DNA of 40,029 nt from Enterobacteria phage mEp390. The first letter of the stretch is position 1, and each line of letters starts with the position of its first letter. Below the pieces are notes generated by a model. That model was given only the letters and a program-made list of their open reading frames with translations. It ran no database searches and was not told the origin of the DNA. The stretch lies in the sequence record NC_019721.1, one strand, 5' to 3'. Below are positions 14,161 through 34,218 of the stretch, one piece after another. The translations under genes and the position numbers were made by a program.

Positions 14161-17100
14161 ATGGCTACAGATAAAGTGTTAAAGGGCCGCAAGGGCGGCA
14201 GCTCAAGTTCCCGAACCCCTACCGAACAGCCTGATGATCTGCAATCTGTAGCGAAGGCAAAAATCCTCGTTGCGCTTGGGGAAGGGGAGTTTGCAGGGCA
14301 GCTAACCGGCAAAGATATCTACCTGGACGGAACGGCGCTGGAGAATGCCGACGGTTCCCAAAACTTTAGCGGCGTGACGTGGGAGTTTCGCGCGGGAACG
14401 CAGGCGCAAAAATATATTCAGGGTATTCCCGGTACCGAAAACGAAATCAGCGTAGGAACTGAGGTATCAAGCGCTACAGCATGGACGCGCACCTTTACCA
14501 ATACGCAGCTTTCAGCAGTTCGCCTGCGTCTGAAATGGCCTTCGCTTTTCAAACAGGAGGACGACGGCGATCTGGTGGGTTACTCGGTCAATTATGCGAT
14601 TGACCTGCAGACGGACGGCGGCACATGGCAGACGGTACTTAATACCAGCGTGACCGGCAAAACGACGTCTGGTTATGAGCGCAGCCACCGTATCGATTTA
14701 CCGCAGGCTGGCAGCACCTGGACAATACGTCTGCGTAAGATTACCTCTGATGCCAACAGCGCGAAGATCGGTGACACGATGACGCTGCAGAGCTTCACCG
14801 AGGTGATTGACGCCAAACTACGTTACCCCAACACCGCGCTGCTCTACATCGAATTCGACTCAAGCCAGTTCAACGGCTCTATTCCCCAAATTTCATGCGA
14901 ACCGCGCGGCCGCGTTATCCGCGTTCCAGATACCTACGACCCTGAAACCCGCACTTATAGCGGTACATGGACCGGTGCGTTTAAGTGGGCATGGACGGAT
15001 AATCCTGCGTGGATTTTTTACGACCTGGTTGTTTCTGACCGGTTCGGCCTCGGTCACCGTTTGACTGCTGCGAATATCGATAAATGGACGCTTTATCAGG
15101 TTGCTCAGTATTGTGATCAGATGGTACCAGACGGCAAAGGGGGCAACGGTACCGAACCACGTTATACCTGCAACGTGTACATTCAGGACCGGAACGACGC
15201 CTACACAGTCCTGCGTGATTTTGCCGCTATCTTCCGAGGCATGACCTACTGGGGCGGGGATCAGATTGTGGCCCTGGCTGACATGCCGCGCGATGTTGAT
15301 TACAGCTACACGCGCGCTAACGTTGTTGGCGGTCGCTTCACCTATTCGAGCAGCACCACGAAAAGCCGCTACACCACAGCGCTGGTTTCATGGTCAGACC
15401 CGGGTAACGCTTATGCCGACGCGATGGAGCCGGTTTTTGAGCAGGCGCTGGTGGCGCGATACGGCTTCAATCAGCTGGAAATGACAGCCATCGGCTGCAC
15501 CAGGCAGTCAGAAGCGAACCGAAAGGGGCGCTGGGGTATTCTCACCAACAACAAGGATCGCGTTGTTTCGTTTGATGTCGGGCTGGACGGCAACATTCCG
15601 CAGCCGGGCTACATCATCGCCGTGGCAGACGAGCTGCTATCCGGAAAGGTTATGGGCGGCCGCATCAGCGCCGTTAACGGTCGCGTTATCAAACTTGACC
15701 GCGTGGCAGATGCAGCAGCGGGTGATCGCCTTATTCTCAACTTACCATCCGGAGTGTCGCAGAGCAGGACCATTCAGGCCGTAAACGGGGAATCAGTCAC
15801 GGTCACCACGGCATACAGTGAGACGCCACAGGCCGAAGCTGTTTGGGTGGTTGAATCTGACGAGCTCTATGCGCAGCAGTATCGTGTTATCAGCGTTTCC
15901 GAAAAGGATGATGGCACGTTCTCGATTACTGGCGCATGGCACGACCCGGATAAATATGCCCGTATCGATACCGGAGCCATTATCGACCAGCGGCCGGTGA
16001 GCGTGATCCCGCCTGGTAACCAGTCGCCGCCTGCGAACATCGAGATCAGCTCGTTTTCCGTGGTTCAGCAGAATATCAGCGTCGAAACGATGCGCGTGAG
16101 CTGGGACCAGGCGCAGAACGCTATCGCCTATGAAGCGCAGTGGCGCCGCAACGACGGGAACTGGGTTAACGTGCCGCGCAGCTCCACAACGTCATTCGAC
16201 GTCCCCGGAATTTATGCCGGGCGCTACCTGGTGCGCGTGCGCGCAATCAATGCCGCAGAAATTTCATCCGGATGGGGCTATTCAGAAGAGAAAACGCTGA
16301 CGGGTAAAGTGGGCAATCCACCGAAGCCGGTTGGCTTCATCGCTTCTGAAAACGTGGTTTTCGGTATCGAGCTGAATTGGGGATTCTCGGCGAATACCGA
16401 CGACACGCTGAAGACGGAGATTCAGTACAGCCTGACCGGGACAGGGGACGATGCGATGCTGCTGGCCGATGTGCCATATCCACAACGAAAATATCAGCAG
16501 ATGGGACTGAAGGCGGGACAGATTTTCTGGTACCGCGCGCAGCTGGTCGACAGAACAGGCAACGAGTCCGGGTATACGGATTGGGTGCGAGGACAGGCCA
16601 GCATCGACGTTTCAGACATCACCGATGTGATCCTGGAGGAAATTAAAGACTCCGACACATTCAAAGATCTGATTGAGAACGCGGTGGACAGCAATGAAAA
16701 AATTGCTGGCATGGCTGACGAAATCAAAAACCATGCCGACGAACTTGAGCAGCAGGCGAAAGACATCCAGGAGAACGCTGACGGGTTGGCGCAGGCCGAA
16801 GTGAAGATAGACGAGATTTCTGTGTCGATCGACGGCATGACAGGAGGCGTGAAGAATTCGGCTATTGCCATTATTCAGAATGGGCTGGCGCAGGTTGCCA
16901 CTCGCAAAAGGCTATCCGCAACGGTCGCGGGGAACAGCGCTCAGTTGGATCGTATTGATGAGGTAATCGTTAACGAGAAGGAGGCAACGGCGCGTGCTCT
17001 ACTGAGCCTGCAAACGAACGTCAACGGTAATACGGCATCCATCAACAGCCTGAGCCAGACGGTTTCGAATTATCAGCAGTCTACAGCCACGCAGATAAAT

Positions 17101-17610
17101 GCTATTACGGCGACAGTCAATGGACATACTTCCTCTATAACCACGAACGCCCAAGCCATTGCGAACGTAAACGGCCAGCTCAGCGCGATGTACAACATCA
17201 AAGTTGGGGTAACGAGTAACGGCCAGTATTACGCCGCAGGCATGGGGATCGGGGTGGAGAATACGCCATCAGGGATGCAGTCGCAGGTAATCTTCCTGGC
17301 CGACCGTTTTGCCGTTACATCCCAGGCTGGCAGCACTGTGTCCTTGCCGTTCGTGATCCAGAACGGGCAGACATTTATCAATGATGCTTTCTTCCGTGAT
17401 GCGAGTATTCAGTTCGGTAAAATTACGGATTCTCTCCAGTCTGATAATTATGTTGCCGGAAGTGCTGGCTGGCGTTGGGGTAAAGACGGAACGATGCAGA
17501 ACTACGGGAGCGACAGTTCCGGAGGCATGAAGCAGACTAACGTCACCATCAGCATTCGTGATGCTAACAGGCTCCGTGTTCAGATAGGAAAACTTACAGG
17601 AGTGTTTTAA
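14161..17610 (+). CDS. J: host specificity protein J (central tail fibre)
   Basis: 1149-aa ORF in gpJ position after I. Confidence 0.9.
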   Translation: MATDKVLKGRKGGSSSSRTPTEQPDDLQSVAKAKILVALGEGEFAGQLTGKDIYLDGTALENADGSQNFSGVTWEFRAGTQAQKYIQGIPGTENEISVGTEVSSATAWTRTFTNTQLSAVRLRLKWPSLFKQEDDGDLVGYSVNYAIDLQTDGGTWQTVLNTSVTGKTTSGYERSHRIDLPQAGSTWTIRLRKITSDANSAKIGDTMTLQSFTEVIDAKLRYPNTALLYIEFDSSQFNGSIPQISCEPRGRVIRVPDTYDPETRTYSGTWTGAFKWAWTDNPAWIFYDLVVSDRFGLGHRLTAANIDKWTLYQVAQYCDQMVPDGKGGNGTEPRYTCNVYIQDRNDAYTVLRDFAAIFRGMTYWGGDQIVALADMPRDVDYSYTRANVVGGRFTYSSSTTKSRYTTALVSWSDPGNAYADAMEPVFEQALVARYGFNQLEMTAIGCTRQSEANRKGRWGILTNNKDRVVSFDVGLDGNIPQPGYIIAVADELLSGKVMGGRISAVNGRVIKLDRVADAAAGDRLILNLPSGVSQSRTIQAVNGESVTVTTAYSETPQAEAVWVVESDELYAQQYRVISVSEKDDGTFSITGAWHDPDKYARIDTGAIIDQRPVSVIPPGNQSPPANIEISSFSVVQQNISVETMRVSWDQAQNAIAYEAQWRRNDGNWVNVPRSSTTSFDVPGIYAGRYLVRVRAINAAEISSGWGYSEEKTLTGKVGNPPKPVGFIASENVVFGIELNWGFSANTDDTLKTEIQYSLTGTGDDAMLLADVPYPQRKYQQMGLKAGQIFWYRAQLVDRTGNESGYTDWVRGQASIDVSDITDVILEEIKDSDTFKDLIENAVDSNEKIAGMADEIKNHADELEQQAKDIQENADGLAQAEVKIDEISVSIDGMTGGVKNSAIAIIQNGLAQVATRKRLSATVAGNSAQLDRIDEVIVNEKEATARALLSLQTNVNGNTASINSLSQTVSNYQQSTATQINAITATVNGHTSSITTNAQAIANVNGQLSAMYNIKVGVTSNGQYYAAGMGIGVENTPSGMQSQVIFLADRFAVTSQAGSTVSLPFVIQNGQTFINDAFFRDASIQFGKITDSLQSDNYVAGSAGWRWGKDGTMQNYGSDSSGGMKQTNVTISIRDANRLRVQIGKLTGVF

Positions 17611-17912
17611 TGGCTTGGGGAATTCAGACTTGGGACGCCAACGGCATCCCGAACAACTACGGTATCAAACCCGTATCAGTGGTAGGACGTATTCAGCTTT
17701 CCGAGGGGCAAACCTCGGGCAACTGGTCCTTTACCATTCCGGCAGGGATGAAGGTCGGATTTGCGGTGTCCCTTGATAAAGGCGCGGTCTCGGTGGGCCG
17801 ACGCATTATCGCTAACGGGAACACCATCACACTCAGCACTGCCAGCGAAGTTGGTATAGGTAATTATCCGGCCTCGGAATGTGAACTGGTGGTCTTCGTG
17901 GAGAATGCATGA
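17610..17912 (+). CDS. hypothetical protein downstream of J
   Basis: 100-aa ORF, start overlaps J stop (TAATG). Confidence 0.45.
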   Translation: MAWGIQTWDANGIPNNYGIKPVSVVGRIQLSEGQTSGNWSFTIPAGMKVGFAVSLDKGAVSVGRRIIANGNTITLSTASEVGIGNYPASECELVVFVENA

Positions 17913-18589
17913 TGGCAGATTATGGCGCACTGATTGCGCTGGAAAGCGGAAATCCGTTCATAACTCCTCAGTCAACGCCGTTTTGTCTGTACAGAAAGGT
18001 AGTGGTTAATTCTTCAGCAAACGGGGCATATCACGGAGCCTCTGCAACGGTCGCGCTGGATGCCTCTTATCCGGCAATGGTTTTTTGCAAAACGAGTGAT
18101 ACCGCTCAACCAACTACGGTTGGAGCATCCAGGTCAGGAGGAAATATTCTCGTTGGCTCCAGCAATGCTTATGGTCAGTCACATACTCTGACGGCGTACA
18201 TCTTTGCCATCTTTCCACAAACGTTGCCCGACTGGGGATTTGCTGTCTGGGATAAAGACGGAAAGCTGGTACTGACAAACGAAAGCCGCGTGCTTACTGA
18301 CCTCGTTACTGTCGGAACACCAGGAGCCTCAACGGGAGGGATAAACATTGATGTTACGTTGCAGGGTAGTTATGCGGTAGCGCCTGCAATTCTGGGCTCT
18401 CAAATCATACAGAACAACAATACCAGGCCTCCAACAATCGTGAATATAACAGCCTATGCAGGGTGCCGTTTTAACGGTTCGTCGACCAGAATAACTGCCG
18501 CGCCTTCGACAACAGCTACTGGTTCTGCAGCAGGAGGGACAACCACCGGGATAGCATTGACGGCCATCAACACCGCAGCCTATGACTGA
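17909..18589 (+). CDS. hypothetical protein (possible fibre-associated, Thr/Ala/Gly-rich C-terminus)
   Basis: 226-aa ORF, translationally coupled to upstream ORF. Confidence 0.45.
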   Translation: MMADYGALIALESGNPFITPQSTPFCLYRKVVVNSSANGAYHGASATVALDASYPAMVFCKTSDTAQPTTVGASRSGGNILVGSSNAYGQSHTLTAYIFAIFPQTLPDWGFAVWDKDGKLVLTNESRVLTDLVTVGTPGASTGGINIDVTLQGSYAVAPAILGSQIIQNNNTRPPTIVNITAYAGCRFNGSSTRITAAPSTTATGSAAGGTTTGIALTAINTAAYD

Positions 18590-18650
18590 TTGATCGTTTT
18601 GAGCGATCAATAAAAAATAATTGATCTACATAATCAATTATACCCGTCGA
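18586..18650. promoter_or_regulatory. AT-rich region with two inverted repeats of ATTGATC half-sites and three GATC sites
   Basis: ATTGATCG-N7-CGATCAAT and AATTGAT-N7-ATCAATT; GATC at 18592, 18605, 18623. Confidence 0.4.
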
Positions 18651-18700
18651 TTTTGTATTGATATCTTCGAAGCTACTGAATTCCTCTGGATACTATCAAA

Positions 18701-18934
18701 ATGAAAAGGCTAATTATCAGCATGGCGAGCGCTTTAATGCTGTCTGGTTGTGCTGGTGTACTTGAGAAACAGGAACCTATTTGCAGCGGCACGGCCATTG
18801 TAGGCGGTCAGGAAAATACCGTTATGATTTACGGCGTTCGAAAACAAAACAACCAGACGCAATACCGCGCCGGTTATCCCTTTAACTGGCGTTGGGTAGG
18901 CGCAAATACATTCACTGGCACTACCTGTAAATAA
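18701..18934 (+). CDS. small lipoprotein (possible Cor-like superinfection exclusion protein)
   Basis: 77-aa ORF with signal peptide and LSGC lipobox; located after tail genes; followed by terminator. Confidence 0.5.
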   Translation: MKRLIISMASALMLSGCAGVLEKQEPICSGTAIVGGQENTVMIYGVRKQNNQTQYRAGYPFNWRWVGANTFTGTTCK

Positions 18935-18953
18935 CCAACCCATTCGAATACAA

Positions 18954-18976
18954 CCTCGCTCCGGCGGGGTTTTTTA
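18954..18976 (+). terminator. intrinsic terminator
   Basis: CCTCGC-TCCG-GCGGGG hairpin followed by T7. Confidence 0.6.
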
Positions 18977-18991
18977 TTGCCTGGAGAAAGT

Positions 18992-20326
18992 ATGCTTTAT
19001 AACACTGGCACCATCGCCATTAACGGAAATACCGCCACTGGAACGGGTACGAACTGGACTGCGCCAGCCAGCCAGGTCCGCGCTGGCCAGACGATTATCG
19101 TCATGTCGAGCCCGGTTCAAATTTTCCAGATCTCAAGCGTGGACAGCTCCACCTCGATGACGGTTACGCCATCTGCATCACCGGCGTTAAGCGGCCAGAA
19201 GTATGGAATTCTTGTGTCGGACATTATCTCGGTTGATGGACTGGCACAGGCTATGTCTCAGCTCATCAAAGAATATGACGAGAACATTGGCGCGTGGGAG
19301 ACGTTCGCCACTACCTCAGCAAACCAGACCATCACCGTTACCATCAACGGAACCTCCGTTAATATTCCAAGTATTGGCGCGCTTGCCAGAAAGGGGGCCA
19401 ACAGCGATATCACCGAGCTTAAAGGGCTCACTACTGCGCTTTCTGTTGCACAGGGCGGGACTGGGGCAAAGACCGAAGCTGACGCTCGCACAAACCTCGG
19501 TTTAGGAAGTGCGGCAACTAAAAATACTGGTGAAGGCGATAATAACGTGCTGGCACCAGGATCATTTGGCGTAGGTTCGAAAAACTTGCCAGTAATTGGC
19601 GACATCTGGGATAAAAGCCAGGGAACTCGCTTCTGCAACGTATCTCCTGCCACGTCAGGAGGACCGGGTATGTATGGTTCAGGTATCAGGTTCTCGGACC
19701 GAAATATTGGGAGTGGGGGCACCCCAGCTGCGCAACAATCCTTTGCCGCCCTGATTCTTAGCGGCAAGGTCATTCAATTTATGGGAATGGCTGATGGTAT
19801 CGATACTGGCTGGATGAAGATTTACCACACAGGCAATACGACTCGGACATCTGATGGCACGTTGAAGGCCGCCTCGCCTATAGTTCAATTGTTCGGGGAT
19901 GGGACATGCCAGTTTAACGATGAATCCGAGGGGTGCGCCGTAACCCGCCTGGATATCGGGGAATACCTGATTGAAGGTTGTACCGGCTTGAATGCAGATG
20001 CAGCATGGGGCGGTATAGATGGCGGTTTTGACATTCCTACTGACCGTAACAAACAGCCACTCATCTGGCTTGATTATATGGTTAATTCTGACGGTTCTGT
20101 GCTGGTTAAAACCTATCACCGCACCCACCCGTCGGCCCCTGAATTTGCCAGAAATGAGCGGGCGGGGTTAGCTGATGGAGACCCGGTTGATATCCCGTCA
20201 GATCAGTTCGTCAGCGTTCGAGTAGAAATGCCTGCTAACAGCATATGGAATCAAAAACAGCTGGCTGCTAAAAAAGCTCTCTATGACGCTCATGAATTAG
20301 ATGCCAACGAAGATAGTGGCTCTTGA
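18992..20326 (+). CDS. tail fibre protein
   Basis: about 444 aa from ATG with GGAGAAAG RBS (track ORF starts at upstream TTG 18977); Gly/Thr/Ala-rich N-terminus typical of fibre proteins. Confidence 0.65.
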   Translation: MLYNTGTIAINGNTATGTGTNWTAPASQVRAGQTIIVMSSPVQIFQISSVDSSTSMTVTPSASPALSGQKYGILVSDIISVDGLAQAMSQLIKEYDENIGAWETFATTSANQTITVTINGTSVNIPSIGALARKGANSDITELKGLTTALSVAQGGTGAKTEADARTNLGLGSAATKNTGEGDNNVLAPGSFGVGSKNLPVIGDIWDKSQGTRFCNVSPATSGGPGMYGSGIRFSDRNIGSGGTPAAQQSFAALILSGKVIQFMGMADGIDTGWMKIYHTGNTTRTSDGTLKAASPIVQLFGDGTCQFNDESEGCAVTRLDIGEYLIEGCTGLNADAAWGGIDGGFDIPTDRNKQPLIWLDYMVNSDGSVLVKTYHRTHPSAPEFARNERAGLADGDPVDIPSDQFVSVRVEMPANSIWNQKQLAAKKALYDAHELDANEDSGS

Positions 20327-20395: not shown

Positions 20396-20662
20396 TCACA
20401 GGCCAACCTGGCGAACGGTCGGGGACTCAGAAACCAGCCATATGTCGGACTCTTCAAACATTTCTTCCAGCATGCGGTTTAGCTTTTCCCGATCGCTTTT
20501 ACTTGCATCGCTATTCAAGCCGTTCGCCTGCATCGGCTTCACCTTCACTTCGGCATCAGGGAAAATCTGATGAACCCGCTTCGTCAGCTCGGCCAGAATG
20601 ATCTCTCTGGCCCCTTCGAGCCCCGCAACATTACGCTTGTCATATACCAGTTCAACAAACAT
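20396..20662 (-). CDS. dinI: DinI-like DNA damage-inducible protein
   Basis: 88-aa ORF with FPD and ESxDxWLVSE motifs matching DinI as recalled; AGAGGG RBS; LexA box about 45 bp upstream. Confidence 0.8.
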   Translation of the reverse strand: MFVELVYDKRNVAGLEGAREIILAELTKRVHQIFPDAEVKVKPMQANGLNSDASKSDREKLNRMLEEMFEESDIWLVSESPTVRQVGL

Positions 20663-20748: not shown

Positions 20749-20988
20749 ATGCCTCGTCAACTTGATATACGTGCAGCCTTTTTAGCGGCCATACAACAGA
20801 ATCCTAAGGGATATCTTTGTTTGAACACTGACAAATTCATCACTGAATTGCGCTTTAGGAATTGGCATTTCAGCCAGGCAGATGCCAATGCCTGGATTAA
20901 GAGATACCAACCAGACTTTGCTGATAAGACGACGGATGGAAGCGATAACCGTTACTGGATCTTGCGTAATATGGGGAGGGTTTTCTGA
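20749..20988 (+). CDS. hypothetical protein, first gene of putative SOS-controlled operon
   Basis: 79-aa ORF with GAGAGGG RBS, 25 bp downstream of LexA box; stop overlaps next start (ATGA). Confidence 0.5.
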   Translation: MPRQLDIRAAFLAAIQQNPKGYLCLNTDKFITELRFRNWHFSQADANAWIKRYQPDFADKTTDGSDNRYWILRNMGRVF

Positions 20989-21308
20989 TGGGCTTTCCTT
21001 CACCTGCTATGGATTACCAGGAACAGCGGTTAACCATAGATCTGTTATGCGGAATTGATGGGAACTGCAGGGTAATAGAAACATCCTGTGGTTGGGCAGT
21101 GATTAACATTGCTCTAAGGCCAGAGCAGGGAGATACGCTACTGGTAAGAATGGATAACAGGAACGAGTTTGCAAAGCTATACGGGGCGGCATTGATAACT
21201 GAAGATGGTGAAGCGATAGAAGGCGACGCGCTGGATGATGTGGAAGTGTTTGGTGTGCTAACGCATAGTCTTAACCGCGTTTGTAATGATGATTGCCCAG
21301 CCATTTAA
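20988..21308 (+). CDS. UmuD'-like S24-fold protein lacking N-terminal tail and probably the catalytic dyad
   Basis: begins M-GFPSPAMDYQEQR, matching the UmuD segment just after its Cys-Gly cleavage site as recalled; C-terminal VEVFGVLTH resembles UmuD DVFGVVIHV; no SGDSM motif seen. Confidence 0.5.
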   Translation: MGFPSPAMDYQEQRLTIDLLCGIDGNCRVIETSCGWAVINIALRPEQGDTLLVRMDNRNEFAKLYGAALITEDGEAIEGDALDDVEVFGVLTHSLNRVCNDDCPAI

Positions 21309-21367: not shown

Positions 21368-21651
21368 TTCGCCATTGTGACATTTTGATAACGGTAAGCT
21401 ATTGATTACTTAGATCATAAAATTATGAATTAATGGCGAAAAATAATCGTATATGTTTGATTTTATTAGATAACACGCGTGATTTAAAATCCCTCGGCGT
21501 TCGCGCTGTGTGGGTTCAAGTCCCACTCCGGGTACCATGGGAAAACTAGAATAAAATCAATGATAAGCAGTGTCGTATAAACCACCGAAAGGTGGTTTTT
21601 TATTGTGTTTTTTTCGCCATTCGCCATTGTTTCGCCATTCGACTTCGCCAT
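21368..21651. other. attP region: tRNA-Leu 3' core (21481-21537) flanked by TTCGCCATT arm-type repeats
   Basis: 57 bp matching the anticodon-loop-to-CCA portion of an enterobacterial tRNA-Leu(UAA) as recalled, with no 5' half; TTCGCCATT at 21368, inverted at 21432, four direct copies 21613-21651; integrase adjacent. Confidence 0.65.
21580..21602 (+). terminator. intrinsic terminator downstream of tRNA-like core
   Basis: AACCACC-GAAA-GGTGGTT hairpin followed by T6. Confidence 0.6.
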
Positions 21652-21663
21652 AGAAAGAGGGCA

Positions 21664-22674
21664 TTACTGCCCCCCAACCACCGGTACTACAGATATTTTG
21701 CGGTTGTATCTTGCAGTCTGCGAAGCATTTTTGTGGCCTGATATTTCTTGTTTCTCATGCAGCGTACCTTCCAAATCAGATATCCCTTTGGCTTTCAGGT
21801 CATGGAAAGTAAAGTCAAATTCGATCTCAGGGAATTTCTCAGCGGCTAACTTTTTCGCCTTCATCCACTGCGCATTAAAAGCATCTCGTGTATATCTCGA
21901 TCCTGATGGCTGGTGAATAACATACATGCTAACCATTCCTTCTTTGAGAGGTAAGGAATCAGCCAAGGAGATTGCACGCCTTAAGCGATCGGTCCATTTT
22001 TTGATTTGACTCACTGCTGTCTTACTTTGCTGAATCATGATTCCTTCATGAAGAAGCTGCGTTTTTTTTAGATCAAGAATATCCCCCTGTCTAGCGCAGC
22101 ATAGATAGGCAACCTCCATAGCGATTTTTACAGGAATAGTTGCAATACTGTACAGAGCATCATATTCGTTATCAAAAACGTAACGAGTCCTGGCCTTTTC
22201 TTTAAACTGCTTTACCCCTTGGCAAGGGTTCATCTTCACTTTTCCACGCTCATATGCCCACCTGAATACCCTCGACATAAACGCTTTTTCTCGGTTCGCC
22301 TGAACTCTGCTCTTAACCCCCCTCTTATCCATATACTTTCTGATGTGCTCCGGCTTAATGTTTTCTGGTTTCATTTTGCCGAAAACGACATTTACCTTTG
22401 AACCATATTTCCGGTAATCCTTTCTGGTTTCTGTTGCCAGATCATGAAAGTCACCAGAGTTAAAAAACTCTTCGCAAAGAGCATGAAAGTTGGAACCAAC
22501 CTTTATATCGTTGATGAAGTTTTCATACGCTGCCCAGACCTGAGACTTTGTGAGATCGAGGTTGCACAATCTCACAGTTCTCCCGTCTGGCGTTCTGAAC
22601 TCATAAGCAGATTTGCCTCGACGCACGCGGGGCGGCATCCAGTTATCTTCTGGGTTTTTGCGGATTCTGGGCAT
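21664..22674 (-). CDS. int: tyrosine-type site-specific integrase
   Basis: 336-aa ORF with C-terminal HxxR and RY catalytic-region motifs (HDLKAKG, ARYNRK); adjacent to att core. Confidence 0.88.
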   Translation of the reverse strand: MPRIRKNPEDNWMPPRVRRGKSAYEFRTPDGRTVRLCNLDLTKSQVWAAYENFINDIKVGSNFHALCEEFFNSGDFHDLATETRKDYRKYGSKVNVVFGKMKPENIKPEHIRKYMDKRGVKSRVQANREKAFMSRVFRWAYERGKVKMNPCQGVKQFKEKARTRYVFDNEYDALYSIATIPVKIAMEVAYLCCARQGDILDLKKTQLLHEGIMIQQSKTAVSQIKKWTDRLRRAISLADSLPLKEGMVSMYVIHQPSGSRYTRDAFNAQWMKAKKLAAEKFPEIEFDFTFHDLKAKGISDLEGTLHEKQEISGHKNASQTARYNRKISVVPVVGGQ

Positions 22675-27972: not shown

Positions 27973-28629
27973 TTACAGGTCAGTAACTACTTGTTTTACT
28001 ACACCAACAATTTTGCAGTTACCATTTACTTCCATAACACGATAGTTAGGGTTCAGCGGAACAAGATATTTTAATGGCCCATCAATAACAAACTTTTTGA
28101 GAGTTGCCTCAGCAGAACCGACAATTTGAGCGACAACAATTTTTCCATTTACTTCTTGTGGGCTGCCGTAATCGGGGTCCACCACGACGAATGAGCCTTC
28201 CGGGATACTTGGTGCTCCGTTTGGATTTGTCATCGAGTCACCGCGAACACGTAGTGCAAAACCTTCATCTGATAAGCTGGCCGTAGTGAATATCCATTCG
28301 GAAATATCACCTTCAGTTATTGGAGCTCCACTCTCTGTCCATTCCCCAGCCTGTACCCAAGATAGGATAGGGATTTTCTTTACACCAAACTTCTCAGTCG
28401 GCTTATAAAGAATCTCGTCACAGTCTGGATCACCGTGTCCCGTAATTATCCACTGAGGGTTAGTTTTTAAGGCAGCCGCCAGCCCCTGTAGGTTAGAGCC
28501 ACCAGGTTCATAATCACCAGACTCCCATCCTGTAACCGTTACTCGGTTTACGCCTACCAGCTTGGCGAGAACAGCCTGGGTGAGCTTCAGCTCTTTGCGT
28601 CTTGCGCGGATGCGTTCATTCATTTTCAT
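27973..28629 (-). CDS. cI: CI-like repressor (HTH plus S24 autopeptidase domain)
   Basis: 218-aa ORF with XRE-type HTH (LTQAVLAKLVGVNRVTVTGWE) and S24 motifs (GDSM, later Lys); start codon abuts first operator. Confidence 0.88.
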   Translation of the reverse strand: MKMNERIRARRKELKLTQAVLAKLVGVNRVTVTGWESGDYEPGGSNLQGLAAALKTNPQWIITGHGDPDCDEILYKPTEKFGVKKIPILSWVQAGEWTESGAPITEGDISEWIFTTASLSDEGFALRVRGDSMTNPNGAPSIPEGSFVVVDPDYGSPQEVNGKIVVAQIVGSAEATLKKFVIDGPLKYLVPLNPNYRVMEVNGNCKIVGVVKQVVTDL

Positions 28630-33399: not shown

Positions 33400-34218
33400 T
33401 TATTCAGGGCTTGGGAAAGCGTTTGGTGGCATAAATTGTTGGAGGGCATATCTTATTTGAAGTCTAATGTAGTCCTCTGGAAAATCAGATCGATCTAAAG
33501 ATGATATAATTTCTTCTTCGTTAAATATGCCTGCCTTAATCATTTCATTTATCTTTGTCTTCATGCGCATTAAAATGTCTGTTCTGTTTATCTGGCGCGG
33601 GTATCGGATATTCGCGGAAATTTCACGAGAGTTGCTTTCTAACTCTCTAACTTGATGGGCTAAAATGCGTGTGTTGTTTAAAATTTCAGCCAACATGTCT
33701 TTATCAGTGCGAGCTGGAACGACCTCGTTAGGTTGATTATTGCTGAGGGCTCTACTAAATCCTTCTTCAAATTGAGGCCAGTAAGTTTCAAAAGCCTTTG
33801 CCAGGATATCATCAGGTAATTTACTTTCATCAAGTAATGAATTAATTGTTTTGAGGAGTTTAAAAACGCTATCTTTATTTTGAGTTGTATGGTTGAACTG
33901 AGAAAGTGGTGCTTCTAGGTCTTCAGGTTTTAAATCAATCAAAAATGTACACACTCTATTATCAGGAAGCCCTTTTGTTAGTGCTCCCGTTTCGAAAAGA
34001 ATCCACGGTTTATTTTTGTTTTCTTGAGTCAAGAAAACTACGCCTATTGAGACGTCCTTTAAAATTTCATTAATTTCGGAGAACCAGATTGCACCACGGT
34101 CAATATCTTTAGTTGAAATCCAAGGTTGTGCTGCTTGAATTACGCACTTCAACCATCCATTAAATTCTTCAGCAACAGCTTGGCTACGGTTTCCAGACCA
34201 ACTTAAGAATATTTTCAC
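33400..34218 (-). CDS. TIR-like domain protein with C-terminal helical domain of unknown function
   Basis: 272-aa ORF, GTG start with AAAGAGGT RBS; N-terminus KIFLSWSG...DIDRG..W....I.E.L....VVFLT...W.LFETGAL fits TIR beta-alpha pattern; markedly AT-rich. Confidence 0.55.
   Translation of the reverse strand: MKIFLSWSGNRSQAVAEEFNGWLKCVIQAAQPWISTKDIDRGAIWFSEINEILKDVSIGVVFLTQENKNKPWILFETGALTKGLPDNRVCTFLIDLKPEDLEAPLSQFNHTTQNKDSVFKLLKTINSLLDESKLPDDILAKAFETYWPQFEEGFSRALSNNQPNEVVPARTDKDMLAEILNNTRILAHQVRELESNSREISANIRYPRQINRTDILMRMKTKINEMIKAGIFNEEEIISSLDRSDFPEDYIRLQIRYALQQFMPPNAFPSPE

Follow-up and report, generated by a model that had tools for sequence, protein, structure and literature searches.

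The 40,029-nucleotide (nt) genome of Enterobacteria phage mEp390 (NC_019721.1; hereafter the window, meaning this whole stretch of DNA) carries the lipoprotein gene cor between its tail genes and its side tail fibre gene, and directly upstream of cor stand two inverted repeats with three GATC sites. We propose that cor is driven by an epigenetic switch within 18589-18975, operated by the host regulator OxyR and the DNA methyltransferase Dam, with the unmethylated, OxyR-bound state being ON; we assign this reading a probability of about 0.68. Cor-based phage resistance would then probably be on in only part of a lysogen population. We infer OxyR binding, methylation dependence, the transcription start, polarity, and bistability at cor from sequence comparison. 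The elements of the unit are as follows.

18589-18611 (+): distal putative OxyR half-site (repeat 1), ATTGATCG-TTTTGAG-CGATCAAT
18620-18641 (+): proximal putative OxyR half-site (in repeat 2), ATTGATCT-ACATAAT-CAATTAT
18639-18644 (+): predicted weak −35, TATACC, 17 nt from the predicted −10 and abutting the proximal core
18659-18667 (+): predicted extended −10, TG-A-TATCTT (hexamer 18662-18667), of the conserved form TGnTAnnnT
18688-18691 (+): weak Shine-Dalgarno-like GGAT, 9-10 nt before the ATG, where GGRA is conserved across cor loci
18701-18934 (+): cor, encoding a 77-amino acid (aa) outer-membrane lipoprotein precursor
18952-18975 (+): rho-independent terminator of the cor unit, an 8-bp stem followed by TTTTTTAT

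In the proposed mechanism, methylated GATCs would keep OxyR away and bound OxyR would keep Dam off the GATCs. Competition between OxyR and Dam for 18589-18641 would lead to two self-perpetuating states of the cor promoter, which would switch after replication, as at gtr, opvAB, and agn43. That unmethylated, OxyR-bound DNA would be ON and methylated DNA OFF is the least certain step. Only a fraction of lysogens would pay with a disabled FhuA ferrichrome transporter for resistance to phage, colicin M, and albomycin.

Cor is a lipoprotein that inactivates the FhuA receptor, and Cor lysogens exclude FhuA-dependent phages. It has been a textbook gene of lysogenic conversion and superinfection exclusion since the work on phi80 and N15, and is regarded as constitutively expressed. 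A sequence-only reading of the window had noticed a 77-aa lipoprotein gene here and had likened it to the Cor-type exclusion proteins, and both points are borne out. The open reading frame (ORF) at 18701-18934 (+) matched the NCBIfam equivalog NF047972, "phage exclusion lipoprotein Cor", with 138.8 bits (cutoff 31, 4e-41), over residues 1-76 of a model with 78 positions, and matched PHROG 1119 at 2.4e-35. The N-terminus, MKRLIISMASALMLSGC, contains a lipobox (L-S-G-C, Cys17); the Pfam LPAM_1 motif matched weakly, under its cutoff. By tblastn, the window's Cor shared 87% identity with its HK022 counterpart, 64.5% with that of N15, and 33% with that of T1, and the gene order J-gp22-gp23-cor-stf is common to the window, N15, phi80, HK633, mEp213, and HK022. 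By its sequence, this ORF is a true phage Cor exclusion gene, which is predicted to act in superinfection exclusion via FhuA. The stretch 18589-18975 is a self-contained accessory unit (a "moron") that comprises the regulatory module, the predicted promoter, cor, and the terminator. Including its terminator, a counterpart of which is annotated in mEp213, HK633, and phi80, the unit shows the classic layout of a phage accessory gene.

Upstream of cor, the sequence-only reading had described an AT-rich segment with two inverted repeats and three GATCs, all of which are present. The arms of repeat 1 (18589-18596, ATTGATCG, and 18604-18611, CGATCAAT) and of repeat 2 (18617-18625, ATAATTGAT, and 18633-18641, ATCAATTAT) are in each case 100% complementary across a 7-nt gap. 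The GATCs start at 18592, 18605, and 18623 and span 35 base pairs (bp), and the A+T content is 69% in 18586-18650 versus 48% for the window. A GATC triple within 35 nt arises in 62% of random placements of the window's 147 GATCs and is unremarkable alone. The heptamer ATTGATC has three copies in the 40-kb window (both strands), all inside this 38-bp stretch, and the pattern GATC-N9-GATC-N14-GATC occurs a single time. The strongest case against chance is the near-invariance of the arms across diverged cor loci, with drifting sequence between them.

The arms of repeat 1 match those of the OxyR(A) half-site in the P22 gtr operon at every base, and those of OxyR(C) at every base but the last; the route to gtr was one non-cor match of a scan for repeat 1, which carried a P22-type gtrA. 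On the gtrA sense strand of P22, ATTGATCGgtaacaaCGATCAAT and ATTGATCGcttgtatCGATCAA occur in the gtr control region, which is laid out as ...aaaaATTGATCGgtaacaaCGATCAATtaacatgcattatATAGATAAAAACTATcaaattatacattATTGATCGcttgtatCGATCAAaac...TACACT...ATG. Computed from the published start 25 nt before the ATG, its GATCs fall at −110, −97, −46, and −33, which are the published GATC1-4 of OxyR(A) and OxyR(C). The gtr sites were demonstrated to bind OxyR only when unmethylated, OxyR shields them from Dam, and mutation of dam or oxyR abolishes gtr phase variation (PMC2909390).

Scored against the OxyR consensus ATAGnTnnnAnCTAT, the distal core at 18593-18607 (ATCGTTTTGAGCGAT) fits at 8/10 positions. 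It is flanked by GATC1 (18592-18595) and GATC2 (18605-18608), which are 13 nt apart and placed just like the GATCs of gtr A and C, and the distal half-site overlaps the final base of the stop codon of the gp23-like gene. As for repeat 2, the dyad that the earlier reading described does exist, but it does not appear to be the functional register: the OxyR register would be ATCT-N7-CAAT at 18624-18638 (ATCTACATAATCAAT), which fits the consensus at 7/10 positions in most cor loci. This proximal core lies 31 nt downstream of the distal one, centre to centre, a spacing close to that reported for reduced OxyR, and GATC3 (18623-18626) overlaps its start. The same type of half-site, ATCGATCG-N7-CGATCGAT, is found in the agn43 operator and in the region upstream of Mu com/mom; the GATC spacing of 13+18 at cor is the mirror image of the 18+13 at Mu mom and is close to the 19+13 at agn43. 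On these comparisons, we read the upstream repeats as two putative half-sites for the host LysR-type regulator OxyR, carrying three Dam sites. Elsewhere in the window, at 21388-21433, another pair of OxyR-like 15-mers (8+6/10, 31 nt apart) with one GATC lies in AT-rich DNA that separates the integrase gene from the accessory genes following stf; its score is expected by chance.

The register of the proximal half-site can be read from copies of the module that stand before other genes. An IMG/VR scan for ATTGATCG-N7-CGATCAAT, that is, for the distal dyad alone, gave at least 119 loci, with at least 54 sites away from cor, and we analyzed 42 distinct full modules with non-cor downstream sequence among the matches listed, the scope that holds for all counts in this paragraph. 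At positions that the search pattern left unconstrained, the OxyR consensus was followed in the distal half-site (T6 in 34/42, A10 in 33/42) and in the proximal one (T6 in 36/42, A10 in 42/42, C12 in 41/42, A14 in 32/42, T15 in 42/42), which argues for the register ATCT-N7-CAAT at 18624-18638. When all copies were sorted by downstream sequence into 20 families, a hexamer nAnnnT stood at module offset 73-78 in 17 of the 20 (12 as TAnnnT), compared with 0-4 families at any other offset from 55 to 94. The −10 thus appears to be fixed 23 nt after the proximal core. A −35 hexamer and a 17-nt spacer together fill this gap exactly, and the OxyR core would accordingly abut the −35. In several of the other cargo families, TTGAAN or TTGATN occupies the −35 position at the same module offset.

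It is improbable that the repeats are operators of some other DNA-binding protein, such as a phage repressor, another LysR-type regulator (e.g., HdfR), Fur, or FNR, with the GATCs being incidental. Invariant arms with variable spacers are indeed the generic signature of a dimeric binder, the TTGAT/ATCAA motifs resemble FNR half-sites, and FhuA, the target of Cor, is Fur-regulated. ATTGATC is, however, absent from the rest of the window, immunity region included, and the module is common to hetero-immune phages (HK633, mEp213, phi80, PHB10) and P2-like prophages. The N4 spacing of FNR is absent, the spacings here being N7 and N11, and the best Fur box match reached 11/19, a score equalled or beaten about 140 times in the window. 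In addition, sites with demonstrated OxyR binding have these same arms, and where the search pattern left positions free, the bases agree with the OxyR consensus. No consistent match to DnaA box, IHF, LexA, or H-NS sites was seen at the repeats, which were checked for these by eye only. The sequence-only reading had suggested a Dam-methylation-sensitive or repressor-controlled promoter, which stands in the main: its first half is favoured, the arms of repeat 1 being those of the validated P22 gtr OxyR(A) site, and the regulator of such a promoter would be OxyR, with a phage-encoded repressor unlikely.

To compare cor loci, we gathered them via the Cor protein, from 80 viral contigs, 16 bacterial genomes, and several reference phages, and computed weighted identity to the window over 58 distinct alignable loci. 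Loci L107-L225 had been picked by the repeat-1 pattern itself, and the conservation statistics were restricted to loci found via the Cor protein. The weighted identities were as follows.

Repeat 1 arms: 0.94 and 1.00
ATTGATCT of repeat 2: 0.99
CAATTAT of repeat 2: 1.00
N8 linker: 0.63
Repeat 2 spacer: 0.68
cor codon positions 1+2: 0.87
cor codon position 3: 0.58

The arms are therefore more conserved than cor codon positions 1+2, and the linkers drift at about the synonymous rate. These values speak against regarding the repeats as non-functional AT-rich palindromes left by mosaic recombination, as does the recurrence of the module with fixed geometry before at least eight types of cargo. That the region is a mosaic junction, and that phage ECP1 seems to have undergone a deletion between repeated ATCAAT motifs, fits such an origin, which we nevertheless find hardly credible. 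The 13+18 GATC pattern was present in 50/67 distinct protein-ascertained cor loci, and the module was kept in prophages of Enterobacter, Trabulsiella, Pseudocitrobacter, and Rahnella, where Cor is 58-75% identical and the upstream gene is different. phi80 carries an intact module and N15 a degenerate one, and cor stands without the module in virulent T1-like and Dhillonvirus phages, SSU5, and Stx phages. In a Serratia prophage and Aeromonas phage pAEv1818 (L090, L101), the double-GATC dyad before cor is the promoter-proximal site, as at Mu mom.

Alternatively, the late transcript might form RNA hairpins from the repeats where gp23 meets cor, with a role in processing, stability, attenuation, or translational insulation. 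Both fold as hairpins in the minimum-free-energy structure, and they lie directly 3' of the stop codon of the upstream late gene. The fold energy is, however, within that of shuffles (z = −1.7; 14/200 shuffles as good), neither hairpin is followed by a T-run, and Rfam gave no family match, the only sub-threshold match at the locus being istR at the cor terminator. The arms are invariant, and no compensatory variation was found in the loci compared; the one Rahnella arm change, ATCAAT to ACCAAT, breaks pairing on one side. The fixed distance of the module to a −10 hexamer before unrelated genes is likewise not what an RNA element would call for, and we consider this explanation very improbable. 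As judged from these patterns, the repeats seem to be conserved as protein-binding sites, not as RNA.

Returning to the OxyR/Dam switch, its polarity depends on where the promoter lies. TGnTAnnnT was present 38-42 nt before the ATG (mostly at −42; −50 to −30 searched) in 62/67 distinct protein-ascertained cor loci, and we place the predicted transcription start of cor near 18674. With this start, the half-site centres would fall at −74/−43 and the GATCs at −82, −69, and −51. At opvAB, the OxyR half-sites OBSC/OBSD are at −75/−43, and transcription is activated when the one at −43 is occupied (PMC4856963). Since half-site centres at −74/−43 that abut a weak −35 reproduce this activation geometry, we take the unmethylated, OxyR-bound state as ON. 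Further support comes from the weak core promoters of several sister cassettes (e.g., −35 TATCAA and −10 TATCGT, no TG), which fit dependence on an activator, and from the HK022-type allele described below.

Other promoter candidates were rejected. Pairs of −35 and −10 built from the TTGATC arms were dismissed by hand, having spacers of 12 or 20 nt. The GenBank "−10" GATACT of mEp213, located just before the ATG, would mean a leaderless mRNA and is not conserved as a −10; in Enterobacter and Rahnella loci this position reads as a Shine-Dalgarno sequence. A minus-strand TATAAT, formed from the conserved ATTATA, is perfect, but there is no usable −35 or gene on that side, and we regard ATTATA as part of an OxyR half-site plus the −35.

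The same OxyR/Dam switch could work with the opposite polarity, bound OxyR repressing cor and methylation of the three GATCs expelling OxyR to turn it ON. The 13+18 GATC spacing mirrors that of Mu mom and is near that of agn43; bound OxyR represses at agn43 and reportedly at mom. OxyR on the promoter-proximal BC pair of gtr (centres −70/−38) also represses (PMC2909390). The conserved extended −10 (TGn) of the cor family could work without an activator, and phi80 lysogens, in which the module is intact and the host dam+, have classically counted as Cor-positive. The geometry favours activation: the proximal core abuts the predicted −35 without overlapping it, and its 23-nt gap to the −10 is that of opvAB OBSD, whereas the gtr C site, centred at −38, overlaps the −35 and leaves an 18-nt gap. 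Several cargo families behind the same module have very weak core promoters, and under repression by OxyR the HK022-type loss of GATCs would lock cor OFF, although roughly a dozen phages of this type have kept cor intact. We therefore consider the opposite polarity unlikely, though a serious contender.

The HK022-type allele is a natural variant in which GATC1 is lost to a 4-bp deletion and GATC3 to a G-to-T change, while cor is intact and the OxyR cores are kept at 8/10 (ATTGTTTTGAGCGAT) and 7/10. It is carried by HK022, HK633, mEp235, HK75, HK106, HK542, and mEpX1/X2, and in the loci of this type (L002, L029-L034, L037-L039, L046) the changes lie about 110-60 nt upstream of cor. At gtr, engineered CATC/GATG mutants abolish methylation without touching the OxyR consensus, and the HK022-type losses resemble them. 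With GATCs lost and OxyR cores kept, this allele should be permanently OxyR-bound and probably represents the switch in a "locked" form. HK022 has been cited as Cor-positive (PMC3594210), and given that Cor is also intact in the HK022-type phages, locked-ON fits better than locked-OFF. Two singletons (L053, L056) have one GATC changed to GATA. Upstream of cor in phage ECP1 (L071, KY979108), a single dyad remains, ATTGATCGCTTTGAGCGATCAATTATCCC, with the remaining half-site 4 nt farther from the −10.

Several points weigh against an OxyR/Dam switch that is ON when bound. By the OxyR consensus alone, nine pairs in the 40-kb window reach the same summed score (8+6/10), and the case consequently rests on identity to a validated site, conservation, and positional regularities. 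The proximal half-site of the window fits the consensus at only 6/10 positions, and the half-site spacing is 31 nt here versus 32 nt in gtr and opvAB. A strict sigma-70 scan of 18300-19200 found no promoter, so that the promoter is read solely from the weak, conserved extended −10. As to polarity, an error of 5 nt in the predicted start would swap the activating and repressing geometries, and the OxyR-bound state represses at agn43, as bound OxyR reportedly does at Mu mom. The Cor phenotype of phi80 has classically been described at the population level, and with an intact module in this phage, any OFF fraction should be small or condition-dependent. N15 has been reported as Cor-positive despite its degenerate module, which indicates that not every phage needs OxyR to express cor.

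The module is not confined to cor. It precedes at least eight unrelated small prophage cargoes, and in most of these genes it lies 103-112 nt before the start codon. Among the cargoes are 39-40-aa membrane peptides with ECPYD as their last residues, a 47-aa protein that begins with MELNQEEAE, a 95-aa membrane protein, and 61-67-aa Cys-rich proteins, as well as a Ner-like repressor (PHROG 769) about 175 nt downstream of the module; most of them had no PHROG match (IMG/VR loci L108, L113, L115, L120, L127, L130, L136, L137, L140, L145, L147, L154, L155, L159, L169, L172-L175, L179, L181, L207, L209, L215, L218). In P2-like prophages, between the tail fibre and tail sheath genes, the module stands before a non-coding unit of about 65-90 nt that ends in a strong rho-independent terminator (GGGGAAAGCGAAGCCCACCG...CGGTGGGCTTTT; L150 4253-4405 and L112, L116, L122, L125, L133, L162, L177, L190, L225). 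Rfam gave no family at threshold for this unit, which may be a phase-variable small RNA. In L128, L131, and L163, an inverted module directly abuts the side tail fibre gene (start MLYNTGTIAINGN).

A broader reading is that a portable "epigenetic promoter cassette", made of two half-sites, three GATCs, and a 23-nt promoter offset, travels with many unrelated accessory genes of lambdoid and P2-like prophages in Enterobacterales and makes the Cor-mediated shutdown of FhuA a bistable form of bet-hedging. Its cargoes would be Cor, several tiny membrane peptides, a Ner-like regulator, and possibly a small RNA. We put this forward tentatively, its chances being somewhat short of even.

Around the cor unit, the genome looks complete and is of the HK022/HK97 lambdoid type; the genes from terminase to tail occupy 1-20.3 kb. 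The nearest relative at the cor locus is PHB10, with 92% identity across 18400-19100. The main neighbouring genes are listed below.

14161-17610: J-like central tail fibre gene
17610-17912: PHROG 557 gene, of a gp22/gp23-like pair
17909-18589: PHROG 425 gene, of the same pair
18977/18993-20326: side tail fibre gene stf (Pfam Phage_tail_C_2, PHROG 1591), its start probably being the ATG at 18993
21664-22674: integrase gene
27973-28629: cI-like repressor gene

None of the 10 early-region ORFs examined encodes a phage Dam. Two small ORFs, at 20396-20662 (−) and 20988-21308 (+), lie between the tail fibre gene and the integrase gene. By eye, the 88-aa product of this pair resembles DinI, and in phi80 a DinI-family gene occupies the corresponding place; the 106-aa product starts with MGFPSPAMDYQE and resembles an ORF beside the gtr control region in an IMG/VR locus (L195). 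In the late-regulation/lysis region, a 272-aa ORF at 33400-34218 (−) has an N-terminal TIR domain (Pfam TIR_2, 28.7 bits, cutoff 28) and may, to judge from this domain, be a prophage-borne defence gene.

If the proposed switch is real, single lysogen cells would differ, and heritably so, in their resistance to T1-like and phi80-like phages, colicin M, and albomycin. There would be a concrete trade-off between FhuA-dependent iron uptake and phage resistance, and the short list of Dam/OxyR loci would be joined by a whole class of prophage accessory genes with one promoter cassette. On the broader cassette reading, every lysogen population would split into phage-resistant, ferrichrome-poor and phage-sensitive, ferrichrome-proficient subpopulations, variants with HK022-like GATC loss would be locked alleles, and Dam/OxyR phase variation would serve prophages generally as a means of expressing costly conversion genes in some cells only.

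Cor itself and the Dam/OxyR switches of agn43, gtr, opvAB, and Mu mom are already known, and the present proposal joins the two. We found no published link between cor and OxyR or Dam, and nothing on the cor promoter, in a search that left subscription journals largely outside. OxyR and GATC sites are unmarked in the GenBank annotations of phi80, N15, HK022, and the mEp phages. Regulation of cor is mentioned neither in a 2024 review of superinfection exclusion nor in a 2026 review of bacterial epigenetics; the latter names agn43 and gtr as the only OxyR/Dam switches, and opvAB is described elsewhere.

Among known systems, the Cor systems of phi80, N15, HK022, mEp167, and T1 share with the window the protein family, size, lipobox, position after J-gp22-gp23, and terminator; there is no difference in the protein, and the difference lies in the upstream module. 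P22/Salmonella gtrABC (Broadbent et al. 2010, PMC2909390) shares the ATTGATCG-N7-CGATCAAT arms and the 13-nt GATC spacing with cor, and it too is carried by prophages as a lysogenic-conversion gene, one that changes the cell surface and influences how phages adsorb. From the proximal half-site to the start codon the distance is similar, 74 nt in gtr and 81 nt in cor. gtr differs in having three half-sites (A, B, C) and four GATCs, with OxyR toggling between AB (ON) and BC (OFF), in contrast to two half-sites and three GATCs at cor. Its half-site spacing is 32 nt, compared with 31 nt at cor, the proximal site of cor is 5 nt farther from the −10, and the cargo of gtr is a glucosyltransferase operon, that of cor a receptor-blocking lipoprotein.

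Salmonella opvAB (Cota et al. 2016, PMC4856963) resembles cor in that its half-sites stand immediately before the −35 (a predicted one at cor), that the proximal half-site carries a GATC, and that phage resistance is traded against another fitness trait (at cor, on the proposed reading). It differs in its four half-sites and four GATCs over about 130 bp, which are occupied alternately (A+C versus B+D), and in being located on a chromosomal island, not in a prophage accessory gene. Escherichia coli agn43 (flu) and Mu mom have three GATCs within a single OxyR tetramer site, as the putative site at cor does, and mom is also a phage gene. In both, the orientation of the module relative to the promoter is opposite to that at cor. 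At agn43, OxyR represses from a site described as downstream of the transcription start, with a half-site spacing of 22 nt. Mu mom additionally needs the phage activator C and is not known to phase-vary. Compared with gtr and opvAB, the cor architecture is simpler, consisting of two putative half-sites and three GATCs at a fixed offset from the predicted promoter, and it is portable between cargoes.

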